This document shows positions 1,071 through 10,020 of a DNA stretch of 10,020 bases, one piece after another; position 1 is the first letter of the stretch, and each line of letters opens with the position of its first letter. The position numbers and the translations under genes were made by a program. Location of the stretch: IMG/VR virus record IMGVR_UViG_3300010244_000056, positions 1-10,020 of that record. The stretch is one strand, 5' to 3'. The notes beneath the pieces are model-generated. The model made no database searches. It worked only from the letters and a program-made list of their open reading frames with translations, and was not told the DNA's origin. This DNA is from a virus.

Positions 1071-1712
1071 ATGGTGAAGGGTATCAAACTAACAGACGAT
1101 CAACCAACCGTAACAAAAACAGTAAAAGAACAAAAAGAGAAAGCTATTCGTGAATATAGAAAAGAGGCTTCAAGGTTAGCAAGTAAAGCAAATAAACGTT
1201 TACAAAGATTAGAACGTAATAAGTTGCAAGATAGTCCAGCATACCAATCAGCTATTGATGGTGGTGAGGTACGCTTTGGTGTTCGTGGGAAAACTCATAA
1301 TGAACTACAATCTGAGGTATCTCGTATGACAAGGTTTTTAGAATCTGAGACATCAACTGTTAGAGGTGCTAACAGAATATTAAAAGAAATGGCAACAAAT
1401 ACAGGTATTAAATATAAAAATTTGAAGGACTTAAAAAAGAACGCAAAAAAATTCTTTGAGTTATCTAGTAAAGTTGAACAATATTTAAGAAACGTTGATG
1501 ATATGGCTTCAGCTATTGGATATGAGAAAATATGGGAGGCTGTTAATGAGTATGTTGAGGAAAATAAAGGTGACCTTTCTTCAAGTACCAACAATATTGA
1601 TAGTGCTGTCAAAAAAATATCTGATGCCATTAAAGAATATGACGATAAAGTTAAATTTGAACCATTAGATAGTGATTTTCCTGATGGTTGGTATAAACTA
1701 CCTAAGAAATGA
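1071..1712 (+). CDS. Candidate terminal protein (replication primer protein)
   Basis: 213-aa ORF immediately upstream of, and apparently coupled to, the protein-primed-type DNA polymerase, as for phi29 gp3/gp2. It has a highly basic N-terminal third (KEQKEKAIREYRKEASRLASKANKRLQRLERNK) and an acidic, Ser/Tyr-containing C-terminal part. SD GGGAGTGA precedes the ATG. The call rests on synteny and composition, not on a recognised motif. Confidence 0.5.
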   Translation: MVKGIKLTDDQPTVTKTVKEQKEKAIREYRKEASRLASKANKRLQRLERNKLQDSPAYQSAIDGGEVRFGVRGKTHNELQSEVSRMTRFLESETSTVRGANRILKEMATNTGIKYKNLKDLKKNAKKFFELSSKVEQYLRNVDDMASAIGYEKIWEAVNEYVEENKGDLSSSTNNIDSAVKKISDAIKEYDDKVKFEPLDSDFPDGWYKLPKK

Positions 1713-1721
1713 TGTGATTAG

Positions 1722-3827
1722 TTGCTTCATTTTAGAGAAAACACCATTAATGAATTATCTTTTCCAACCATTAAAACAAACAAAAAAATAACTTATTTGA
1801 ACACTGAATCAGCTTTTGACATTGAAACAACAAGTACTAAAATTCAGGGTGAAAAAACAGCCTTTATGTATATATGGATGTTTGGATTAGGATTTGGAAA
1901 TAATATTTATTATGGTAGAACATGGGATGATTTTTTAAATTTAATTAAACAATTACAAATCCATTTTAATTTGGGATATTATAAACGTTTGGTTGTCTAT
2001 GTTCATAATTTGGGATATGAGTTTCAATTTATGAGAAAATATTTCAAATGGGAAGAAGTATTTGCAGTTGGGGAAAGAAAACCAATTAAAGCTTTATGCG
2101 AAGAAGGGATTGAGTTCAGGGATAGCTACATTTTAAGTGGTTATTCACTAGGAAAAACAGCCGAAAATTTACAATATAATGAGGTGGAAAAACTGACAGG
2201 GGATTTGGATTATTCCCTAATAAGAACACCTGAAACAGTTATGCAACCACAAGAAATGGCTTATTGCCATAATGACATTGAAATTATACTGGCATATATT
2301 AATGAACAGATACACCAATATAAAGACATAACCAAAATACCACTAACAAACACAGGCAGGGTTAGAAAATATGTTCGTGATAACTGTTATTACACTAATT
2401 CTAACCATAGGAAAAGCAGTAAAGGGAAATACTACAAATACAGAAAATTAATGCAAGATCTGAAGTTGTCCGTCGAAGAATATAAAATGTTAAAACGTGC
2501 TTTTATGGGTGGATTTACACATGCTAATGCTAACCATACAGGTAAGGTTTTAAAAGACGTGTCAAGTATTGATTTTACATCATCATACCCTAGTGTTATG
2601 TTAGCTGAACAATATCCCATGAGTAAAGGGAAACAAATAGATGTTAATAGCATAGATGAACTTGAATATTATTGCCATAAATACTGCTTATTATTCAATA
2701 TACGTTTAACAAATGTTGAAAGCAGTATTTCACAAGAAAACTATATAAGTGAAAGTAAGTGTTTTGAGTTATCTAACCCTATTTTAAATAATGGGCGTGT
2801 GTATAGTGCTAGTTCATTGGCTATGACGATAACAAATGTTGATTTTGACATCATCAAACAATGTTATGATTGGGAAGATATTGAAGTATCCAACGTCATA
2901 CGTTATCATAAGGGTTACCTTCCAAAGTCAATTATATCAAGTATATTAGAACTTTATAAGGATAAGACCGTTTTAAAAGGTGTGGAAGGGTATGAAATTG
3001 AATATTTATTGTCAAAAGGTATGCTTAATAGCGTCTATGGTATGAGTGTAACAGATATAGTGAAAGACAACCATATTTATGATGATAATGAGGGGTGGGA
3101 AGTTGAACCTGTTACCATATCAGATGAAATTGAAAAATATAATGAAAGTAAAAACAGGTTTCTTTATTATCCGTGGGGTGTTTGGGTGACAGCCTATGCA
3201 AGAAAAAATCTCTGGACAGGTATTATAGCATTAGGGAATGATTATGTTTATAGTGATACTGATAGTATTAAAATGATTAATTATAGTGATAATGTTGATT
3301 ATATTGAATGGTATAATAAACAAACTATGAATAAATTAAACCGTATGTGTGATGTTATGAATATAGATAAATCATTACTTGAACCTAAAACAAAAGAGGG
3401 AACTAAAAAGCCTATTGGTGTTTGGGATTTCGAGGGTACTTATAAACGTTTTAAAACATTAGGTGCAAAAAGATATTTGGTACAAGAAAATGATGAACTT
3501 CATTTAACAATAGCAGGATTATCTAAACAAAATGGGATAGAATACATGAAAGAAAAAAGTGGGTTTAATTATGAGAAGGTGTTCGATATGTTTAATGATG
3601 AGTTATATATTCCTGCTGAACGCACAGGGAAAATGACACATACTTATATTGATAATGAACAACAATTCAGGATACAAGATTATCAGGGTAACGATAGTAA
3701 TATCACAACAAAAAGTAGTATCAACTTAGAACCTGCCGATTTTACATTATCAATATCAAGACAATATGGGCGTTTTTTACAATTCTTTTTAAAAGGTTAC
3801 CTATATAAAGGGGTGAACGAAATATGA
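1722..3827 (+). CDS. Family B DNA polymerase, protein-primed (phi29/Cp-1 type)
   Basis: All motifs occur in canonical order. ExoI AFDIETTS (D-I-E at 1818-1826), ExoII YVHNLGYEFQF (from 2004), ExoIII YCHND (2262-2276). Motif A DFTSSYP (2571-2591), motif B KGMLNSVYG (3015-3041), motif C YSDTDS (3249-3266), KxY GAKRY (3468-3476). Long inter-motif segments are compatible with TPR1/TPR2-type insertions. No in-frame ATG exists upstream of ExoI, so the start is TTG 1722. Confidence 0.95.
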   Translation: MLHFRENTINELSFPTIKTNKKITYLNTESAFDIETTSTKIQGEKTAFMYIWMFGLGFGNNIYYGRTWDDFLNLIKQLQIHFNLGYYKRLVVYVHNLGYEFQFMRKYFKWEEVFAVGERKPIKALCEEGIEFRDSYILSGYSLGKTAENLQYNEVEKLTGDLDYSLIRTPETVMQPQEMAYCHNDIEIILAYINEQIHQYKDITKIPLTNTGRVRKYVRDNCYYTNSNHRKSSKGKYYKYRKLMQDLKLSVEEYKMLKRAFMGGFTHANANHTGKVLKDVSSIDFTSSYPSVMLAEQYPMSKGKQIDVNSIDELEYYCHKYCLLFNIRLTNVESSISQENYISESKCFELSNPILNNGRVYSASSLAMTITNVDFDIIKQCYDWEDIEVSNVIRYHKGYLPKSIISSILELYKDKTVLKGVEGYEIEYLLSKGMLNSVYGMSVTDIVKDNHIYDDNEGWEVEPVTISDEIEKYNESKNRFLYYPWGVWVTAYARKNLWTGIIALGNDYVYSDTDSIKMINYSDNVDYIEWYNKQTMNKLNRMCDVMNIDKSLLEPKTKEGTKKPIGVWDFEGTYKRFKTLGAKRYLVQENDELHLTIAGLSKQNGIEYMKEKSGFNYEKVFDMFNDELYIPAERTGKMTHTYIDNEQQFRIQDYQGNDSNITTKSSINLEPADFTLSISRQYGRFLQFFLKGYLYKGVNEI

Positions 3828-4921
3828 GCGATGAAAAACAATTTTATAGTTTAAATCGAATAAAAAAGAAAAATGCGGTTTACAATGTTATATTTGGTGA
3901 ACGGTCAAACGGTAAAACATATGCTGTTTTGAAAGAAGGTTTACGGGTTTTCTGGAAAACAGGTGGTCAAATTGGAATCATAAGAAGATGGAAAGAAGAT
4001 ATTACAGGCAAACGAGCACAAGGAATTTTTAATGCTTTAAATGAAAACGATGAAATTTTGAAAATGACAGATGGGGTTTTTCAGGGAATACATTATTACA
4101 GTGGACGTTATTATTTATGTAATTACACTGAAGATGGTAAAGTTACTTATGAATATGAAAATTGTATAGGCTATGTGTTTGCTTTATCTGATAATGAACG
4201 CAATAAATCTATATCATTTCCTAACATTCAGACAATCTTATTTGATGAGTTCCTAACCAATCAAATATATTTACAAGATGAGTTTATTTTGTTTATGAAT
4301 ACAGTTTCAACAATTGTTAGACAACGAACCGATGTTAAAATATATATGCTAGGAAATACCGTCAATAAATATTGTCCGTATTTTAAAGAAATGGGGTTGC
4401 GACATATACACAAAATGCAAAAGGGGGATATTGATGTTTATAAATATGGAAATAGTAAATTAACGGTGGCAGTTGAGTATTGTAATTCAAGCACAAAAAA
4501 TAAGGAAAACAACTTTTATTTTGCCTTTGACAATCCAAAATTGGATATGATTACGGACGGTGCATGGGAATTAGATATGTATCCCCATATACCAACAAAA
4601 TACCAACCAAAAGACGTGTTAATGATATATTTCATTTTGTTTAATGAGTCCATCTACCAGTGTGAAGTTGTTCAACGAGAAAACATGACATTTACTTTTA
4701 TTCACCCTAAAACAACCCCGTTGAAAGATACTGAAAATGATCTTATATACACACTGGAATATATTCCTAAAATGAATTATAATAGGAATATATATAAACC
4801 TATAAACCAATTACAAGAAAGGTTATTATGGTATTTTAAAACAGATCGTGTGTTTTATTCAGATAATGAAACAGGAGAAGCTATTAATAATTATTTAAAA
4901 GTGTGTAAAGGTGGGGGATAA
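3824..4921 (+). CDS. DNA encapsidation (packaging) ATPase, phi29 gp16-like
   Basis: Walker A GERSNGKT (3896-3919) and Walker B ILFDE (4235-4249). The segments NVIFGERSNGKTYA, FPNIQTILFDEF and IYMLGNTVNKYCPYF parallel my recollection of phi29 gp16 (NFVIGARGIGKSYA, YPNVSTIVFDEF, ICLSNAVSVVNPYF). The start overlaps the polymerase stop (ATGA). SD GGGGTGA. Confidence 0.88.
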   Translation: MSDEKQFYSLNRIKKKNAVYNVIFGERSNGKTYAVLKEGLRVFWKTGGQIGIIRRWKEDITGKRAQGIFNALNENDEILKMTDGVFQGIHYYSGRYYLCNYTEDGKVTYEYENCIGYVFALSDNERNKSISFPNIQTILFDEFLTNQIYLQDEFILFMNTVSTIVRQRTDVKIYMLGNTVNKYCPYFKEMGLRHIHKMQKGDIDVYKYGNSKLTVAVEYCNSSTKNKENNFYFAFDNPKLDMITDGAWELDMYPHIPTKYQPKDVLMIYFILFNESIYQCEVVQRENMTFTFIHPKTTPLKDTENDLIYTLEYIPKMNYNRNIYKPINQLQERLLWYFKTDRVFYSDNETGEAINNYLKVCKGGG

Positions 4922-4922
4922 T

Positions 4923-5105
4923 ATGACAAATGAATTAGTTGATTTAATCGGTAACGTGGGGTTCCCCATTGTGATTTCATTGGTTTTATTTTATCAGCTT
5001 ATGAAAACAAAAGATATGATGATAGAATTTCAAAAAATCATAACTATGAATACAATGACGATTGAAAAATTAATACAAGAACTAGATGAGAAAAAAATGG
5101 AGTGA
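4923..5105 (+). CDS. Small membrane protein, YvrJ-family-like
   Basis: 60 aa from ATG 4923, with SD GGTGGGGG 5 nt upstream; the track's GTG 4911 is less likely. LIGNVGFPIVISLVLFYQL matches the conserved GFPI-containing transmembrane core I associate with the Firmicutes/phage YvrJ family. A charged helical tail follows. It is the only clear TM segment in the genome. Confidence 0.6.
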   Translation: MTNELVDLIGNVGFPIVISLVLFYQLMKTKDMMIEFQKIITMNTMTIEKLIQELDEKKME

Positions 5106-5110
5106 ATAAA

Positions 5111-6130
5111 GTGTATAATTATAAAGATAAAATAAAAAACATTCAACAACGAAATGATTATATGTTGGCTAGAACCCTTTCTATGTTTGAATATGAAAAC
5201 ATGCCTGATAGTATACCACCCCTAGAAGTTGAAAAGCAATTGCAAAAACAGGGATTCACCTTTATAACAGAAATTGAAGGTAAATTATATGCCCTGACAG
5301 GTGGTCTGGGAGGCTATCCTGATGTATACGGGAATCCTACACAAATAATTATTTCAAACCCTTATATAGAATATAATGCAACATTAGATATTAATAATGA
5401 TGGTGTTTTAATAATGAATGATGATATGATGAAAGGGTTAAATCCATTATTTGAACAATATAACACCCTATTAACCGAAAATGAGATATCTATGTATGTT
5501 AATTTATATAATACACGCATTCAAACACTAATCAGCGCAGGTGATGACGCAACTAGAGAAAGTGCTGAGAAATATCTTCAAAAAGTGCAGGAAGGTGAAC
5601 TAGGGGTTATAGGTGAAAATCAATTATTTGATGGCATAAGAGCACAGAACTCATCTGATAAATCAGACCTTACAAATCAATTAGTCGAATTTCATCAATA
5701 CATTAAGGCGTCATTATATAATGAAATTGGTCTTAATTCCAATTACAATATGAAAAGAGAGCGTTTAATTAGTGATGAAGTAAAAATGAATGACAGCTTA
5801 TATCCATTAATTCATAATATGCTTTCAAACAGGAAAAGAGGTATTGAAAAAGTGAATGCTATGTTTAATCACAATATAGATGTTATGTTTGGTTCTATTT
5901 GGAACATTAGAGATGTTGAACCTGAACCAGAACAAGTTGAACCTGAACCAGAACAAGTTGAACCTGAACCAGAACAAGTTGAACCTGAACCAGAACAAGT
6001 TGAACCTGAACCAGAACAAGTTGAACCTGAACCAGAACAAGTTGAACCTGAACCAACAGATGAAGAAATTTCAAACGCTTATGCTATTAATGAACAAAAA
6101 GATGATGAAGAAGGGCGTGATAATTCTTGA
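5111..6130 (+). CDS. Connector / portal (upper collar) protein, phi29 gp10-like, with C-terminal acidic tandem repeat
   Basis: FEYENMPDSIPPLEVEKQLQKQGF and NMKRERLISDEVKMND parallel my recollection of phi29 gp10 ([39 protein letters not shown]). The preferred start is GTG 5111 (SD GGAG 5099-5102, 8-nt spacing). The alternative GTG 5102 overlaps the upstream stop (GTGA). Confidence 0.85.
   Translation: MYNYKDKIKNIQQRNDYMLARTLSMFEYENMPDSIPPLEVEKQLQKQGFTFITEIEGKLYALTGGLGGYPDVYGNPTQIIISNPYIEYNATLDINNDGVLIMNDDMMKGLNPLFEQYNTLLTENEISMYVNLYNTRIQTLISAGDDATRESAEKYLQKVQEGELGVIGENQLFDGIRAQNSSDKSDLTNQLVEFHQYIKASLYNEIGLNSNYNMKRERLISDEVKMNDSLYPLIHNMLSNRKRGIEKVNAMFNHNIDVMFGSIWNIRDVEPEPEQVEPEPEQVEPEPEQVEPEPEQVEPEPEQVEPEPEQVEPEPTDEEISNAYAINEQKDDEEGRDNS
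5915..6055 (+). repeat. Perfect 21-bp tandem repeat, 6 full copies plus 15 nt (GTTGAACCTGAACCAGAACAA)
   Basis: Unit boundaries counted at 5915, 5936, 5957, 5978, 5999, 6020 and 6041, with no mismatch until 6056. It is in frame in the portal gene and encodes (VEPEPEQ)6-VEPEP. Confidence 0.97.
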
Positions 6131-6672
6131 TTTTAAGTGATTTTTTAGAGGGAAAAGAAAACTTATTCAATGTAATAAACACCAAAACAACCCTGCCATT
6201 TTTAAAAGAAAATGATACTGAAACGATTCTACTATCATATAAGTTAGAACATGGCAATTTAAAAGTACCTGAAAAGATAGAAAATTTGACTATTCCAGAA
6301 CTATCAGATATAATTATATTAAATTATGAGGATAAATGGGATAAACAGTATAAAATATTAAGTGAAGAAATTGTTCTGGGAGTTGATCGAAAAACAAAAA
6401 CTGATATTACAGGGACTGATGATACAAACAAAAAAACAAAAACAGATAAAACCAACAAAATAAGTGCCTATAATAGCAATGAATTAATAACAGATGATGG
6501 GTCTGATAGTAATTCAACCGATGATACAAATACAAACACAACAAAAAATAGTGAAAAAACAGAAAAAAGTTTTGAGGGTATGAAAGAACAACTGAAATTG
6601 TTTGATTATAGTTTCTTAAAAAACCATGTTTTTAGAGATGTTAATCATATTTTAACTTTACAAATTTATTAA
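6127..6672 (+). CDS. Hypothetical structural protein; candidate lower collar / tail-tube connector (scaffold role not excluded)
   Basis: 181-aa ORF with no in-frame ATG near the 5' end. TTG 6127 overlaps the portal stop (TTGA). It directly follows the connector gene, as gp11 follows gp10 in phi29. It has helical-looking N- and C-terminal parts around a 60-aa polar Thr/Asp/Asn/Lys-rich core (nt 6388-6567). No motif recognised. Confidence 0.4.
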   Translation: MILSDFLEGKENLFNVINTKTTLPFLKENDTETILLSYKLEHGNLKVPEKIENLTIPELSDIIILNYEDKWDKQYKILSEEIVLGVDRKTKTDITGTDDTNKKTKTDKTNKISAYNSNELITDDGSDSNSTDDTNTNTTKNSEKTEKSFEGMKEQLKLFDYSFLKNHVFRDVNHILTLQIY

Positions 6673-6685
6673 GGAGTTGTTAAGA

Positions 6686-7855
6686 ATGAAAGTTAAACAA
6701 TTACGACAATTAGTCAATCAGGCAACACAAGAAGTTCTAGGTGAAGAAGGTGTTATCAACGAAGATCTTTCAAACGTTGTTGATGTGGGGAAGAAAATTG
6801 AAAATGCAGACAGCGTTGATAATTATGTGAAAAAGTTGGTTAATCATATTGGTAAAGTGACATTCCAAAATAGATCATATGCGGGTGGTGCGCCATCTGT
6901 ATTAATTGATAGTTGGGAATATGGCTCAATCCTTGAAAAAGTGAGCACAGAACTACCTGAAGCCAATGAAAATGAAACATATAAATTGACTGATGGGGCT
7001 GAATATTCCCCTGATATTTTCTATCAACCAAAAATTAGTACACAATTTTTCAACAGTAAAGTGACATTTGAAATTCCATTATCTTTTACAGAAAACCAAA
7101 TTAAAGAAAGTTTTTCAAGTGGCAATCAATTGAACGGTTTTGTTTCAATGCTAACAACAAGTGTTGAAAACTCATTCACTGTTAAACTTGATAATCTAAT
7201 CATGAGAACTATCAATAATATGATTGGTGAAACACTTAATGATGATGTTTCAAGTGATTTTACAAAAACAGGTGTTAAAGCGGTCAATCTTATTAGATTA
7301 TATAATGATGAATATGATACAAGTATTACAAAAGAAACCGCATTATCTAACCCCGACTTTATTCGTTATGCAACTTATATTATTGGTTTGTATAGTGATC
7401 GCATGAAAAAGATTTCAACCTTGTTCAATATTGGTGGTAAAGAAAAATTTACACCTGAAGAGCATCTTAACACAGTTTTATTGTCCGACTTTGAAAAAGC
7501 TAGTAATGTTTTCTTAAAAGCTGATCTGGAAAACAGCAATCAAATCACATTGCCTACTCATGAAACAGTTCCATATTGGCAAGGAAGCGGTAAAGATTAT
7601 AGTTTTAAATCTGTATCTAGCATTGATGTTAAAACTTCAAGTAAAAACAAAGTTGCAACCGATGGTATTTTAGGTGTTATGTTTGATCGTGAAGCTATTG
7701 GGGTTTCCAATCTTGATCGTAGAGTGACAACTAACTTCAATCCAAAAGCAGAATTTTATACGAATTTTTACAAATTTGAAGCAGGTTATTTCAATGATAA
7801 AAATGAAAATTTTGTCGTTTTCTTCTTAGGTGATGAAGCAGGTACTGAGTCTTAA
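6686..7855 (+). CDS. Putative major capsid protein
   Basis: 389 aa from ATG 6686, preceded by the best SD in the genome (AAGGAG 6671-6676, 9-nt spacing); TTG 6677 in the track is too close to the SD. It is followed by an intrinsic terminator, lies between the portal block and the tail gene, and has a size typical of small-podovirus capsid proteins. The fold cannot be judged by eye. Confidence 0.7.
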   Translation: MKVKQLRQLVNQATQEVLGEEGVINEDLSNVVDVGKKIENADSVDNYVKKLVNHIGKVTFQNRSYAGGAPSVLIDSWEYGSILEKVSTELPEANENETYKLTDGAEYSPDIFYQPKISTQFFNSKVTFEIPLSFTENQIKESFSSGNQLNGFVSMLTTSVENSFTVKLDNLIMRTINNMIGETLNDDVSSDFTKTGVKAVNLIRLYNDEYDTSITKETALSNPDFIRYATYIIGLYSDRMKKISTLFNIGGKEKFTPEEHLNTVLLSDFEKASNVFLKADLENSNQITLPTHETVPYWQGSGKDYSFKSVSSIDVKTSSKNKVATDGILGVMFDREAIGVSNLDRRVTTNFNPKAEFYTNFYKFEAGYFNDKNENFVVFFLGDEAGTES

Positions 7856-7860
7856 TGAAT

Positions 7861-7891
7861 GCGGTGCGGGTAACCACATCGCTTATTTTTT
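7861..7891 (+). terminator. Intrinsic terminator downstream of capsid gene
   Basis: Stem GCGGTGCGG (7861-7869) / CCACATCGC (7874-7882): 9 positions with one G-U and one mismatch, loop GTAA. TTATTTTTT follows (7883-7891). Confidence 0.6.
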
Positions 7892-7899
7892 GAGGTGTT

Positions 7900-8355
7900 A
7901 TGATGGAAATTGTTTTGTATGAAACAATGGATAATGATGATGTTTTAAATAAATCAAAAACAGAACAATATAGATTTAACATTCAATTGAAAAGTGAAAC
8001 CGACATACAAGAACCTAATATTAAATTGAGTGATGAGGGGTTAATGAATTTTAAACGATGTAATTATTGTTATATTGAAGATTTGCAACGTTATTATTTC
8101 ATTCGACGTGTTGAAAACATTAATAGTCAAATATGGTCTTTAGACCTAAAATGTGATGTTATTGAAACATATAAAAATGACATATTAAATAGTTATGCTA
8201 ATGTTTATAGAGGTATTAAAAAAGGTGATTATATGGAAATTAGTTCAGATTTTGAAACCAAAAAAACTTATGAAAAATTTGACAGTAATAAATCATTCAA
8301 TAACGTTGAAAATGTCATCATATTATCAACTTTAGGTGGTGGGGACAATAAGTAA
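7900..8355 (+). CDS. Tail knob protein, N-terminal part (phi29 gp9 N-domain-like)
   Basis: SD GAGGTG precedes the ATG. NYCYIEDLQRYYFIRRVENINSQIWSLDLKCDVIETYKNDI (8062-8184) parallels my recollection of the phi29 gp9 N-domain ([46 protein letters not shown]). VIILSTLGG resembles gp9 FLVIISKSIMHG. The ORF ends 20 nt inside the next ORF. Confidence 0.7.
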   Translation: MMEIVLYETMDNDDVLNKSKTEQYRFNIQLKSETDIQEPNIKLSDEGLMNFKRCNYCYIEDLQRYYFIRRVENINSQIWSLDLKCDVIETYKNDILNSYANVYRGIKKGDYMEISSDFETKKTYEKFDSNKSFNNVENVIILSTLGGGDNK

Positions 8356-9817
8356 TTTTCATGTAAAAGATGACGGTTTAAAAGTGACAACGGTTATATA
8401 TGAGGACGGTATTAAAAGAGAAACAAAAGTATATGCTATTAAAGGTGATAAAGATTATTACGTTGATACGATAGGTGATTTTTCCAACGTTAAATGGGAA
8501 ATGACCGTTAGACCAACTTACAGGGGTGAGTTTCTTGTTCCTGGAACTATAAGGCTTAAACATGACGACGGGTCATTATCTGGCAATGACGAGTACTTCA
8601 TTGTTGATGATGATTTTCAGGGTACAAATACCATTGTTCGTGAAAACTTGGAATCAGAAGATGACATTACAATTATGGGTGATGTATCATCAACAAAACC
8701 TGTTCCACCAGTTGACAATGTTAAAGTTTCATTTAATGATGTGAATGAACGTGGGGCAGAATTAAAAATAGTTGATGGATCTGAGACAATTAAAACCATC
8801 ACTGATTATGGGGACTATGATGTACCATCTAAAGATAACCAAACCTATGATCTACACATTGAACTTGTTGATAATACAGACTCATTTAAGGAAACACCTT
8901 ATTATATTTTAGATGGTATAAAAACAGATTTTACTATGAAAAACAGTGCTGAAACAAACCCTGTCACCTTATCATTTAATGGAATTGACAATGAGAAAAT
9001 TGAAATATATGGGCGTGTATCATCATCTGGTGATAATGGGGGTGGTGATGGTGGTGAAACTTCAGGTTTTAATCACATATATAAAGTCACAAAAGATGAT
9101 TTGAATGAGCTATCTAAAGAGCGTTTTGAGGTTGTAACAGCAGATTTTTCTGCCGACCTTATCGACTTAGGACAGAACATACTTAATGTCATGAAGATCC
9201 CATTTTCAGTTGATGATTTTCTGGGTGGTAATAATAAGATTGTTTTAGGTAATAAAACAACAAAAGTCACAGCACCTGAAATAACAAGTGATTTATTAGA
9301 AGTTGATCTAGGGTCTATTAAAGTCACTGAAAAATTTGGAAACTTATTTGATTATATGAATACAACCACAACTATTTACCTTCCATATATTGAAGAGATG
9401 GAATTGGACAAGTCATATGTTATTGGTGAAACTATATATATTAAATATGTGATTGATCTTTATTCAGGTGATGTTACAGTGAATATAACCAATACAAAAA
9501 ATGAACAAGTGAAGTCTAAAACAACAACAATTGGTAGACAAATACCATTTATACAAGAACAAGAACACACACAAATGTTTAGCGAATATTCAGGTAACAC
9601 ATTTTTCAATGGTATCTATCACGCATACATCATAGTTAGTAGAAATGAGCCTGTTAATATTGATAATGATATGAATCCTTACATATCTGACTATGGACAG
9701 TTAAAAAATTTCACAAGCCGTATTGTGGTTGATAATGTGGACTTGAAAACAAACGCGACATTACAAGAAAAACAGGAAATAATTAGCATATTAGAAGAAG
9801 GTTTGAATATAAATTGA
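8336..9817 (+). CDS. Tail knob protein, C-terminal part (phi29 gp9-like) with an N-proximal beta-rich insertion; start uncertain, possibly expressed as a fusion with 7900-8355
   Basis: TIYLPYIEEMELD (from 9371), GNTFFNGIYHAYIIVS (from 9593) and the C-terminal NATLQEKQEIISILEEGLNIN parallel my recollection of gp9 (MMYPYCVTEITD; GNTAFDYGNGYRGVYVIK; DINNNDLQEIRTIFDNGITLW). There is no ATG and no SD upstream of GTG 8336/8339. The frame opens right after TAG 8333-8335. Confidence 0.7.
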   Translation: MVGTISNFHVKDDGLKVTTVIYEDGIKRETKVYAIKGDKDYYVDTIGDFSNVKWEMTVRPTYRGEFLVPGTIRLKHDDGSLSGNDEYFIVDDDFQGTNTIVRENLESEDDITIMGDVSSTKPVPPVDNVKVSFNDVNERGAELKIVDGSETIKTITDYGDYDVPSKDNQTYDLHIELVDNTDSFKETPYYILDGIKTDFTMKNSAETNPVTLSFNGIDNEKIEIYGRVSSSGDNGGGDGGETSGFNHIYKVTKDDLNELSKERFEVVTADFSADLIDLGQNILNVMKIPFSVDDFLGGNNKIVLGNKTTKVTAPEITSDLLEVDLGSIKVTEKFGNLFDYMNTTTTIYLPYIEEMELDKSYVIGETIYIKYVIDLYSGDVTVNITNTKNEQVKSKTTTIGRQIPFIQEQEHTQMFSEYSGNTFFNGIYHAYIIVSRNEPVNIDNDMNPYISDYGQLKNFTSRIVVDNVDLKTNATLQEKQEIISILEEGLNIN

Positions 9818-9850
9818 AGTAGTGCTAAGGTACTACTTCTTTTGTTTTTT
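9817..9850 (+). terminator. Intrinsic terminator after the last gene
   Basis: Stem AAGTAGTGC (9817-9825) / GTACTACTT (9830-9838): 9 bp including one G-U, loop TAAG. CTTTTGTTTTTT follows (9839-9850). Confidence 0.7.
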
Positions 9851-10020
9851 AATTAATTTATTAGGTTACCATTTGTTCATAGTTGGTTCTATTAAGAATA
9901 TTAAATAGGTTCAATAAAAATTTAATGACAGAAAATTTTGAATCTAATTAGAATCGAAAAAAATAATTGTGAGAATATTATGGGAAATGAGATAACGGAG
10001 AGGGGGGGTGCGGATATCCC
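9841..10020. repeat. Right inverted terminal repeat (180 bp)
   Basis: Exact reverse complement of 1-180. Its inner edge (9841-9850, TTTGTTTTTT) doubles as the U-tract of the last terminator. Confidence 0.97.

Follow-up and report, generated by a model that had tools for sequence, protein, structure and literature searches.

Two overlapping genes probably encode a two-piece tail knob in a phi29-like phage genome in which the second gene has no ATG start

The window, that is the whole 10,020-bp stretch of DNA that was analysed, is a complete phi29-like genome with inverted terminal repeats of 180 nt. Its genes include, in this order, those for DNA pol B, the gp16 ATPase, the connector and the MCP, followed by two open reading frames, ORF1 directly after the MCP gene and then ORF2. 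The original prediction concerned the boundary between these two frames, which together resemble the tail knob gene of phi29 (gp9), and the positions it gave for ORF1 (7900-8355), ORF2 (8336-9817), a TAG, two GTGs, a GGGG run and an AGGTGG are all present in the DNA as described (Table 1). ORF1 is open from 7900 to 8355 and its likely start is the ATG at 7903, 5 nt beyond GAGGTG; the alternative ATG at 7900 has a spacer of only 2 nt after the same motif. The frame of ORF2, which is +1 relative to that of ORF1, opens after the TAG at 8333-8335 and offers GTG at 8336 and 8339, with no ATG until about 8498, giving an overlap with ORF1 of 20 nt from the first GTG and 17 nt from the second. The AGGTGG lies at 8334-8339, within a longer Shine-Dalgarno (SD)-like motif.

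Table 1. Positions of the features at and around the ORF1/ORF2 boundary
Feature	Position	Strand	Description
ORF1	7903..8355	+	150 aa; small proximal tail-knob protein; homologue of the N-terminal tube-like domain in phi29 gp9, C1 gp12 and the Andhra knob
AGGTGGTG, Shine-Dalgarno-like motif	8334..8341	+	One mismatch to AGGAGGTG; within the Leu-Gly-Gly-Gly codons ending ORF1
GTG, candidate ORF2 start	8339..8341	+	Start called by JGI; gives M-G-T-I-S-N-F...; overlaps the SD; would need termination-coupled re-initiation
GGGG run, proposed +1 slip site	8341..8344	+	Better explained as conserved Gly codons plus SD
ATA, alternative near-cognate ORF2 start	8348..8350	+	In the ORF2 frame; 8 nt after AGGTGG; equivalent in position to the ATG of the ATGAGTAA/G-type overlaps in L034 and L025
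TAA, ORF1 stop	8353..8355	+	Position conserved in the family, a few residues past a (S/T)(S/T)(V/L/I)G motif (alignments)
ORF2	8339..9817	+	Large distal tail-knob protein of 492 aa, counted from GTG 8339; orphan N-terminal/middle module and conserved C-terminal knob domain
ORF2 conserved C-terminal domain	9059..9814	+	About 250 aa; common to Astrithrvirus-like distal knob proteins and thousands of metagenomic proteins

That ORF1 corresponds to the N-terminal domain of gp9, as first suggested, is well borne out. A profile of ORF1 (A1) matches the knobs of phage C1 (4eo2_A, E=3.7e-4) and Andhra (8egs_Y, E=4.2e-4) in the PDB, ORF1 also matches the tail protein family phrog_2248 (E=8.5e-4), and hhalign places it on residues 63-130 of phi29 gp9 with E=0.018. 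Residues 1-105 are modelled with confidence by AF2, the tail residues 111-150 being disordered (pLDDT below 50), and the nine best fold matches of this model in the PDB by Foldseek are all tail knobs (4eo2, 5fb4, 5fb5, 5fei, 8egs), with probabilities of 0.98-1.00 and E from 3e-3 to 6e-2. Homologues of ORF1 number 1098, the best 120 of which are all stand-alone proteins of 145-150 aa, and ORF1 aligns with astrithr gp09, Phanie gp9 and others at 29-41% identity. The closest relatives of ORF1 share less than 50% aa identity with it, no close relative came out of a metagenome scan that used ORF1 by itself, a Pfam search of ORF1 and ORF2 gave no match, and neither did a megablast of 7700-10020 against phages.

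ORF2 is made up of two dissimilar parts. At E<=1e-3 it is matched by 5109 representatives, and among the best 150 of these nearly all align, by their own C-terminus, to residues ~387-638 of the query, which was the hypothetical fusion of ORF1 and ORF2. The ORF1 domain is found in none of the 148 ORF2-like proteins within this best 150, and an initial Met of their own is present in all of the 146 that have a complete N-terminus. By tblastn ORF2 matches astrithr gp10, Phanie gp10 and others, and the AF2 model of its C-terminal domain (pLDDT 84.7) has fold matches in BFVD to a protein of Salmonella phage Astrid (1.7e-24) and, from an uncultured podovirus, to a 'Major tail protein' (6.5e-4). The N-terminal 240 aa are an orphan with no homologue by tblastn or phmmer, and thus the true N-terminus of ORF2 cannot be fixed by homology.

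The original prediction had taken ORF2 for the middle and C-terminal parts of gp9, and of this only an indirect connection has survived. The C-terminal profile (A2) matches the C-terminal parts of two unsplit knobs, L093 (1e-27) and L079 (6e-5), whose N-termini match ORF1, and HHpred similarity of the distal knob part to gp9 has been reported for related phages (PMC11476376). Direct comparison gives much less: hhalign of the C-terminal part with gp9 reaches a weak E=0.33, the C-terminal profile has no match in the PDB or PHROGs, and its model has no significant Foldseek match in the PDB. Searches with the fused protein returned only a chance nanobody match (phmmer against the PDB), nothing useful in PHROGs and the window's own ORF2 alone in a word-indexed protein search; when the unsplit L079 protein was searched by sequence against the PDB, no knob was among the matches.

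The knobs of known structure, phi29 gp9, C1 gp12 and that of Andhra, are single-chain and hexameric (PDB 5fb4/5fb5, 4eo2, 8egs), whereas the knob of the window phage would, judging from its genes, be built of two polypeptides. ORF1 shares with these proteins the sequence motif and the fold of the N-terminal domain, and the genes lie at a comparable place in a late operon, beside those for capsid and connector. Unlike ORF1, the C-terminal domain of ORF2 has no significant direct match to them and is linked to them via the unsplit metagenomic intermediates and the published HHpred result. No single polypeptide of ~520-600 aa with both knob parts is encoded, as ORF1 stops at 8353-8355 with ORF2 in another frame, and the same is found in a sister contig (L007, from a JGI sample). 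Between this contig and the window there are 2 mismatches and a difference of four copies in a 21-nt repeat, so that it was assembled independently, and its junction is identical, including the GGGG.

A survey of related split loci covered 96 loci, representing 76 distinct junctions (77 with the window), and the split is at the same place in all 96. The frame of ORF2 relative to ORF1 is +1 in 35 of the distinct junctions, 0 in 21 and +2 in 20. An ATG lies between -11 and +17 nt relative to the stop of ORF1 in 72 of the 76, and a start codon of some kind (ATG, GTG or TTG) adjoins that stop in every one except L085, where the ORF assignment is unreliable. Non-ATG starts among the relatives are a GTG in L065 and a TTG in L063. 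Overlapping junctions with ATG starts also occur, of 8 nt in L025, L034 and L047 and of 14 nt in the L081 group, and couplings of the TAATG, TAAATG and ATGAGTAA kinds are all found; in the closest genome (L106) the junction reads ...GGAGGAGTT TAA ATG.... An SD-like motif is present in the last 30 nt of ORF1 in 51 of the 76 distinct junctions and, where junctions were read directly, the conserved Gly codons contain it, mostly 6-12 nt ahead of the ORF2 ATG. The G-run is also not peculiar to the window, since GGGG is found at the same place in 31 of the 76 relatives' junctions with no frame change needed.

Two genes are annotated here in the cultured relatives astrithr, Entb_47, a Shigella phage, Vibrio K58 g2 and Phanie, and in DU_PP_III the second ORF is present, unannotated. 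The impression that the two ORFs are one gene interrupted is not upheld, as the relatives also have both genes, divided at this position. Unsplit knobs occur in more distant relatives, and inside the split clade there is one natural in-frame fusion of ORF1 and ORF2 (L093), which shows that a split knob can revert to the fused form and makes it probable that a fused product is tolerated.

Such a split knob has been described for the Astrithrvirus-like phages (PMC11476376), for which AlphaFold models of the two-chain complex have also been published (PMC11476376), and it is, as cited in PMC11476376, also found in Pourcel et al. (2024, J Virol). The split knobs used for comparison are those of Salmonella phages astrithr and Astrid (gp09 and gp10), Acinetobacter phage Phanie (gp9 and gp10) and DU_PP_III, a phage of Pectobacterium. 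In these phages, as in the window, the MCP gene is followed by a gene for ~145 aa and then a large gene, the split comes after (S/T)(S/T)(V/L/I)G, the SD of gene 2 lies in the terminal Gly codons of gene 1, and the middle module of gene 2 is variable. Identity to the window is 35-41% over ORF1 and 33-38% over the C-terminal ~250 aa of ORF2. The window differs in that its gene 2 has no ATG and overlaps gene 1 by 17-20 nt, compared with an ATG at -11 to +17 nt in those phages, in that its genes all lie on one strand with no endolysin gene after ORF2, and in its GC content (30.5% against ~40% in Astrid).

The most probable explanation of 8331-8358, to which we give a probability of about 0.85, is that it is the boundary of two separate, translationally coupled genes which build a two-piece tail knob. 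It follows from the same split in 96 related loci, from ORF2 homologues having starts of their own and from the sister contig with the same GGGG. The two-piece knob was among the possibilities originally raised, and it is the one that fits the relatives, every close one of which has its two genes divided here, with all three frame relations represented among them, an arrangement that is moreover published (PMC11476376). ORF1 would then provide the equivalent of the N-terminal tube-like domain of single-chain gp9 and be the part nearest the head, with ORF2 (about 490 aa) contributing a variable outer module and a conserved C-terminal domain equivalent to the knob's distal part. The stretch AGGTGGTGGGG, rich in G, would be the Gly codons that end ORF1, doubling as the Shine-Dalgarno of ORF2 as in the relatives, rather than a slip site. 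The ATG that ORF2 usually has is missing from the window phage. The homology of both parts, the conserved split, the frame relations and the place of the SD are shown by the comparisons; the start codon in use and the mechanism of coupling are inferred.

It is here that the window is odd, the two-gene arrangement being already known. The observation that ORF2 has no conventional start was correct and is the one real peculiarity of the locus: the choice is between GTG 8336, GTG 8339 and ATA 8348, and the window is the only one of the 77 distinct junctions without an ATG and with a start codon overlapping its own SD. On paper, therefore, initiation of ORF2 looks inefficient. Relatives near enough to reveal how the junction arose were not found, identity in ORF1 being less than 50% aa and the N-terminus of ORF2 having no homologue. 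Starts other than ATG are not foreign to this phage, with TTG or GTG used by three other window genes, and the other genes have GGTG or GGAG cores 5-9 nt ahead of their starts, a spacing survey of the genome giving a mode of 8 nt from SD to start.

The GTG at 8339 has no SD at a usable distance, and its use may depend on coupling, with ribosomes terminating at the TAA of ORF1 and re-initiating 14 nt upstream. Adhin and van Duin are said to have proposed a scanning model of such termination-re-initiation coupling at overlapping genes (ATGA or TAATG). Here the ORF1 stop is downstream of both candidates, of GTG 8339 by 14 nt and of ATA 8348 by 3 nt, but such overlaps are usually of 1-4 nt, shorter than that of the window, and the start is not an ATG. 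The N-terminus that would result from 8339 resembles the MGTV of L009, the MATV of L001 and the MITI of L106, and with a score of 0.35 on a PWM of N-termini it is within the range of true N-termini. We infer that a start at GTG 8339 by re-initiation after the TAA is the first choice for ORF2, at somewhat under even odds. The alternative would be initiation at ATA 8348, which is at the modal distance from the SD and has the best PWM score of the offsets (2.08), although the matrix does not separate the two (0.35 vs 2.1, sd about 6); this start is put forward only tentatively. GTG 8336 was also considered and rejected, having no SD and a PWM fit of -11.2.

A more specific history for the missing ATG may be imagined, which is a sub-case of the two-gene explanation. 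The lineage would once have had an 8-nt overlap of the ATGAGTAA type, like that of L034 and L025, until the ATG became ATA 8348 (and GAG became AAG in ORF1) by a G-to-A change, leaving ORF2 to be made at a low level from ATA or from the fortuitous upstream GTGs. L034 reads ...AAT GAG TAA in the ORF1 frame and ATG AGT AAT (MSN) in that of ORF2, where the window has ...AAT AAG TAA and ATA AGT AAT, or (I/M)SN, and the spacing and the PWM both favour the ATA. However, this likeness is a 9-mer with one mismatch between genomes with 44% aa identity in ORF1 and may be due to chance, and the better PWM score is again no separation of 8348 from 8339. Furthermore, ATA is a poor initiator, and in E. coli reporters its use reached only 1-2% of AUG (bioRxiv 10.1101/063800). 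Such a decay of the start is possible but doubtful.

The explanation favoured at first sight was a programmed +1 frameshift, in which the tRNA-Gly on GGG 8341-8343 slips to GGG 8342-8344, aided by AGGTGG, and a fusion of 638 aa (phi29 gp9 having 599 aa, so that both lengths were given correctly) becomes a single-chain gp9-like knob as the main or required product. There is something to recommend this, as re-pairing on G-GGG would be perfect, only 1 nt separates the slip codon from the end of a strong SD-like motif, ORF2 lacks an ATG as well as an SD at the proper spacing from its GTGs, and the fused protein is structurally plausible given the unsplit knobs of distant relatives and the fusion in L093. 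The resemblance to prfB (RF2) is likewise real as far as it goes, an SD-like element being followed at once by a P-site codon for which re-pairing in the +1 frame is possible. In prfB, however, the spacing is 3 nt rather than 1, and the A site of the window holds neither a stop nor a hungry codon: the codon is GAC (40 uses in the window genes, 12.8 per 1000), which has no scarce tRNA to itself, as tRNA-Asp reads GAT too, and hence the pause that drives shifts of the prfB type is absent.

The comparative evidence points the same way, since no relative needs a shift, the junctions being in three frame relations with start codons of their own, and the G-run and SD-like motif are kept in relatives as the ribosome-binding site of ORF2, that is, as its ordinary SD. 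The site is not conserved in homologues, and the downstream ORF has its own candidate starts. Nor is the G-run statistically special, as GGGG occurs at 29 positions in the window (about 25 separate runs, mostly intragenic), about 16 of the runs other than that at the junction lying inside genes, and no stimulatory RNA structure was found in a fold of 8290-8410 (z=-0.42). Programmed +1 shifts are very rare in phages. The frameshift as the source of the main or required knob protein is thus very improbable, and we regard as equally improbable a weaker form, in which the distal knob gene lost its ATG in this lineage and an SD-assisted +1 slip on G-GGG-A makes at least part of the subunits as a fused ORF1-ORF2 chain. 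Were that so, the slip would functionally re-create the ancestral single-chain gp9 through recoding, with no fusion of genes; in a milder version, the near-cognate ATA 8348 may serve to initiate an essential virion gene. A minor fused product from the window junction is conceivable.

The least probable reading is that one extra G, by sequencing or assembly error or by a recent mutation in a defective genome, has broken a single fused knob gene, for whilst removal of one G does give a continuous 638-aa ORF, metagenomic contigs can carry errors and the fused form exists in L093, the independently assembled sister contig has the same GGGG and the fused state is not ancestral in the clade, ORF1 stopping at a conserved position, a few codons past (S/T)(S/T)(V/L/I)G, in about 100 relatives. 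A homopolymer of four bases is in any case not error-prone on short-read platforms.

For annotation it is appropriate to keep two genes, encoding a proximal and a distal tail-knob protein, without merging them, flagging a pseudogene or invoking ribosomal slippage. A non-ATG start that overlaps the SD of an essential structural gene would then be a small oddity in translational coupling. The split knob itself is widespread, with about 1,100 ORF1-like proteins (90% identity clusters) and about 5,100 ORF2-like representatives (50% identity clusters).

The lysin of the window's closest relative carries a CW_7 domain. This domain hints at a Gram-positive host, whereas the split knobs published so far are linked with hosts that are Gram-negative. 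The split knob probably reaches into a low-GC lineage, the nearest relative of which carries a lysin of the Gram-positive type.

The stretch 8331-8358, at which ORF1 (the upstream, proximal tail-knob ORF) meets ORF2 (the downstream, distal one), is very probably a normal boundary between two genes, the second having an unconventional start. The two had been read as a single gp9-like gene interrupted at a GGGG run, and the description of the sequence behind that reading is accurate throughout: the ORF coordinates, the TAG, the GTGs, GGGG, AGGTGG and the 638-aa fusion that a hypothetical +1 slip after GGG 8341-8343 would give (phi29 gp9 has 599 aa) all agree. Past TAG 8333-8335 the +1 frame is open; it begins GTG(8336) GTG(8339) GGG ACA ATA AGT AAT TTT and is uninterrupted to 9817. 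A minimal ATG-TAA ORF lies in the third frame at 8361-8366, 5 nt past the ORF1 stop, and could capture re-initiating ribosomes.

Features of the window and the corresponding junctions of cultured relatives
Feature	Position	Strand	Details
ORF1	7900-8355	+	preferred start ATG 7903, 5 nt after GAGGTG; stop TAA 8353-8355
AGGTGG	8334-8339
GGGG	8341-8344
21-nt perfect tandem repeat	5915-6055		6.7 copies of GTTGAACCTGAACCAGAACAA; encodes VEPEPEQ heptads, C-terminal part of connector
60-aa ORF	4923-5105		between packaging ATPase and connector; sub-threshold YvrJ small-membrane-protein match
astrithr junction			GTA GGG GAT AAA TAA ATG; ORF2 frame relative to ORF1: 0
Entb_47 junction			GTA GGG GCT TAA T ATG; ORF2 frame +1
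DU_PP_III junction			TCA TAATG; ORF2 frame +2
Phanie junction			GTA GGA GGT CGT AAA TAATG; ORF2 frame +2

A tblastn search of cultured phages with the hypothetical fusion leads to the Astrithrvirus group (Salmonella phages astrithr, Astrid and assan, Pectobacterium phage DU_PP_III, Enterobacter phage Entb_47, a Shigella phage, Vibrio phage K58 g2 and Acinetobacter phage Phanie), in every member of which it matches two adjacent genes immediately 3' of the capsid gene. A wider survey of 17 IMG/VR contigs, 80 metagenome contigs and L106, the closest genome to the window, gave 96 loci with a split knob, whose junctions fall into 76 distinct sequences, the frame of ORF2 relative to ORF1 being +1 in 35 of these, 0 in 21 and +2 in 20. 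An ATG stands at -11 to +17 nt from the ORF1 stop in 72 of the 76, the others having a GTG (L065), a TTG (L063), an ATG right after the stop where the ORF2 frame is short (L041) or no reliable assignment (L085). Some junctions overlap and keep an ATG start: L025, L034 and L047 have ATGAGTAA/G, and in the L081 group the overlap is 14 nt. Comparison with orthologues thus finds two separate genes at the same place and bears out the genuine two-piece knob, one of three options in the original prediction; the ancestral state of the clade is not a fused gene. A natural in-frame fusion of both knob genes, of 611 aa, is found in L093 (contig UMHN01047327.1, 994-2829), which sits in an otherwise split human-gut clade and is a single 3.6-kb contig in which an assembly error is possible; set against the split sister L083, it would have arisen through loss of 10 nt between direct repeats of AATGA.

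Another option, a functionally relevant +1 shift at G-GGG, is improbable. The run permits re-pairing in +1, but the pause that drives the Shine-Dalgarno (SD)-stimulated shift of prfB, the RF2 gene, is missing because the A-site codon is GAC, neither a stop nor a hungry codon; the shift site is not conserved among relatives, and their three frame relations mean that there is no obligatorily conserved frameshift. The motif also has a simpler role. The Gly codons that end ORF1 in relatives (GTAGGGG, TAGGAGG, ATAGGGGGT) typically lie 6-12 nt 5' of the ORF2 ATG and serve as its SD, with an SD-like motif at that place in 51 of the 76 junctions and GGGG in 31. Genes of the window have GGTG or GGAG cores 5-9 nt before the start, the gene at 4923 being preceded by nearly the same string as the junction (AGGTGGGGGATAAT-ATG), and GGGG occupies 29 positions in the window (about 25 runs), some 16 of them inside genes. 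What had looked like an SD followed by a slippery run is therefore the ordinary ribosome-binding site of the second gene, written in Gly codons of the first. Low-level slippage may yield a minor ORF1-ORF2 fusion, which would probably be tolerated, L093 being a natural counterpart. The remaining option, an extra G through error or lesion, is more improbable still: the sister contig L007, which differs by two mismatches and four fewer repeat copies, carries the same GGGG junction, making an assembly error unlikely, and a fused gene is not ancestral in the clade.

For the two-gene boundary the start of ORF2 is the unusual part, the window junction being unique among 77 in having no ATG and candidate GTG starts inside the SD itself. 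The JGI call is GTG 8339 (492 aa), and the resulting M-G-T-I-S-N-F resembles MGTV (L009), MATV (astrithr) and MITI (L106). Use of this GTG would require either ribosomes that have terminated at TAA 8353-8355, 14 nt further downstream, or direct initiation of a weak kind; GTG or TTG starts serve three other genes of the window. ATA 8348 follows AGGTGG by 8 nt, the most frequent spacing in this genome, and occupies the place that the ATG has in L034 and L025; the AAT GAG TAA there and AAT AAG TAA in the window suggest that the present junction came from an ATGAGTAA-type overlap by a change of G to A. Initiation at ATA reaches about 1-2% of that at AUG in E. coli reporters (bioRxiv 10.1101/063800). 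A position-weight model of family N-termini scores ATA 8348 best (2.1), with GTG 8339 at 0.35 and GTG 8336 at -11.2 (null -7.7 +/- 5.6), and by computation GTG 8339 and ATA 8348 cannot be separated. No significant RNA structure was found across the junction.

That ORF1 is the N-domain of gp9 is confirmed by several lines of comparison. Its match in PHROG is weak, to a 590-aa 'tail protein' family, and a profile built from ORF1 and six homologues in phages matches the N-terminal ~100 residues of the knobs of phage C1 (4eo2, E=3.7e-4) and Andhra (8egs_Y, E=4.2e-4), with phi29 gp9 residues 63-130 aligned through a common Y-x-F...(C/I)DV(L/I)(E/Q)T(Y/W) motif. The AlphaFold model is confident for residues 1-105, and the nine PDB folds that it matches best are C1 gp12, phi29 gp9 (5fb4, 5fb5, 5fei) and the Andhra knob, at modest E-values (3e-3 to 6e-2) and probabilities of 0.98-1.00. 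The C-terminal 40 residues (111-150), including the conserved ILSTLGG tail, are disordered in the isolated model (pLDDT <50), which would fit a strand that folds only against ORF2. The end of ORF1 is a conserved place, 1-7 residues beyond a (S/T)(S/T)(V/L/I)G motif in alignments of relatives, and of 1098 ORF1-like proteins the best 120 are all 145-150 aa.

ORF2 has no sequence match in Pfam, PHROG or PDB. Its C-terminal ~250 aa belong to a family of great size, with 5109 representatives at E<=1e-3; of the best 150, nearly all align by their own C-terminus, and the N-terminal part that precedes it varies greatly in length. Among these best 150, the ORF1 domain is absent from all 148 ORF2-like proteins, and the 146 with a complete N-terminus each begin with their own Met. 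The model of this domain is good (pLDDT 84.7) and finds no neighbour among PDB folds; in BFVD it matches a protein of Salmonella phage Astrid (1.7e-24) and gives weak matches to entries of uncultured podoviruses named 'Major tail protein'. The proposal that ORF2 matches the middle and C-terminus of gp9 is supported only in part. In seven metagenomic loci the protein is unsplit, 518-611 aa long, with an N-terminus that matches the ORF1 profile (1e-18 to 1e-24), and in five of them the C-terminal part matches the profile of the ORF2 C-terminus (L093 at 1e-27, L079, L080 and L082 at ~1e-4 to 6e-5, L074 only weakly; L073 and L077 without significant match), intermediates that would link ORF2 to single-chain knobs. 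Compared directly by hhalign, ORF2 and phi29 gp9 show no significant similarity (E=0.33), and the N-terminal 240 aa (8339-9040) have no detected homologue in any locus or protein set searched. Nucleotide similarity to L106 also ends at ~8190, and this part looks like a swapped distal, host-recognition module.

A split knob, one protein of which corresponds to the N-terminal part of p9, has already been described in a 2024 review of phi29-like phages that includes a bioinformatic analysis (PMC11476376), which cites Pourcel et al. and suggests that the split arose in the ancestor of a Gram-negative-infecting lineage. The window is therefore a divergent new example and not a new arrangement. Whereas the published split is tied to Gram-negative hosts, the lysin of L106 (9372-10019) combines Amidase_2 with a CW_7 repeat, a Gram-positive-type cell-wall-binding module, and this, together with strong SDs and a GC content of 30-31%, is a hint of a split knob in a Gram-positive-infecting lineage as well.

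The window is a complete linear genome of 10,020 bp (30.5% GC) with perfect inverted terminal repeats of 180 nt, 1-180 being the reverse complement of 9841-10020. A protein-primed type B DNA polymerase, gp16-type packaging ATPase, phi29-type connector and phi29-type major capsid protein, all genes being on the + strand, identify it as a phi29-like podovirus of very small size, and it ranks among the smallest tailed-phage genomes. L106 (10,117 nt, perfect terminal repeat of 55 nt) shares 68% nucleotide similarity over 1129-5858 and 6671-8190, breaking off within ORF1. L007 (a JGI contig of 9,936 nt) is identical to the window apart from two mismatches and its repeat tract in the connector gene, which is exactly four copies (84 nt) shorter, so that the 21-nt repeat is a copy-number polymorphism in a portal protein. 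In relatives an endolysin gene lies directly 3' of ORF2; here only 23 nt (9817-9841) separate ORF2 from the right terminal repeat, and Pfam detects no endolysin gene anywhere in the genome. The small ORF at 4923-5105 matches the YvrJ family at E=3.4e-4 (20.6 bits, below the cutoff of 29.5), and its product could be holin-like.
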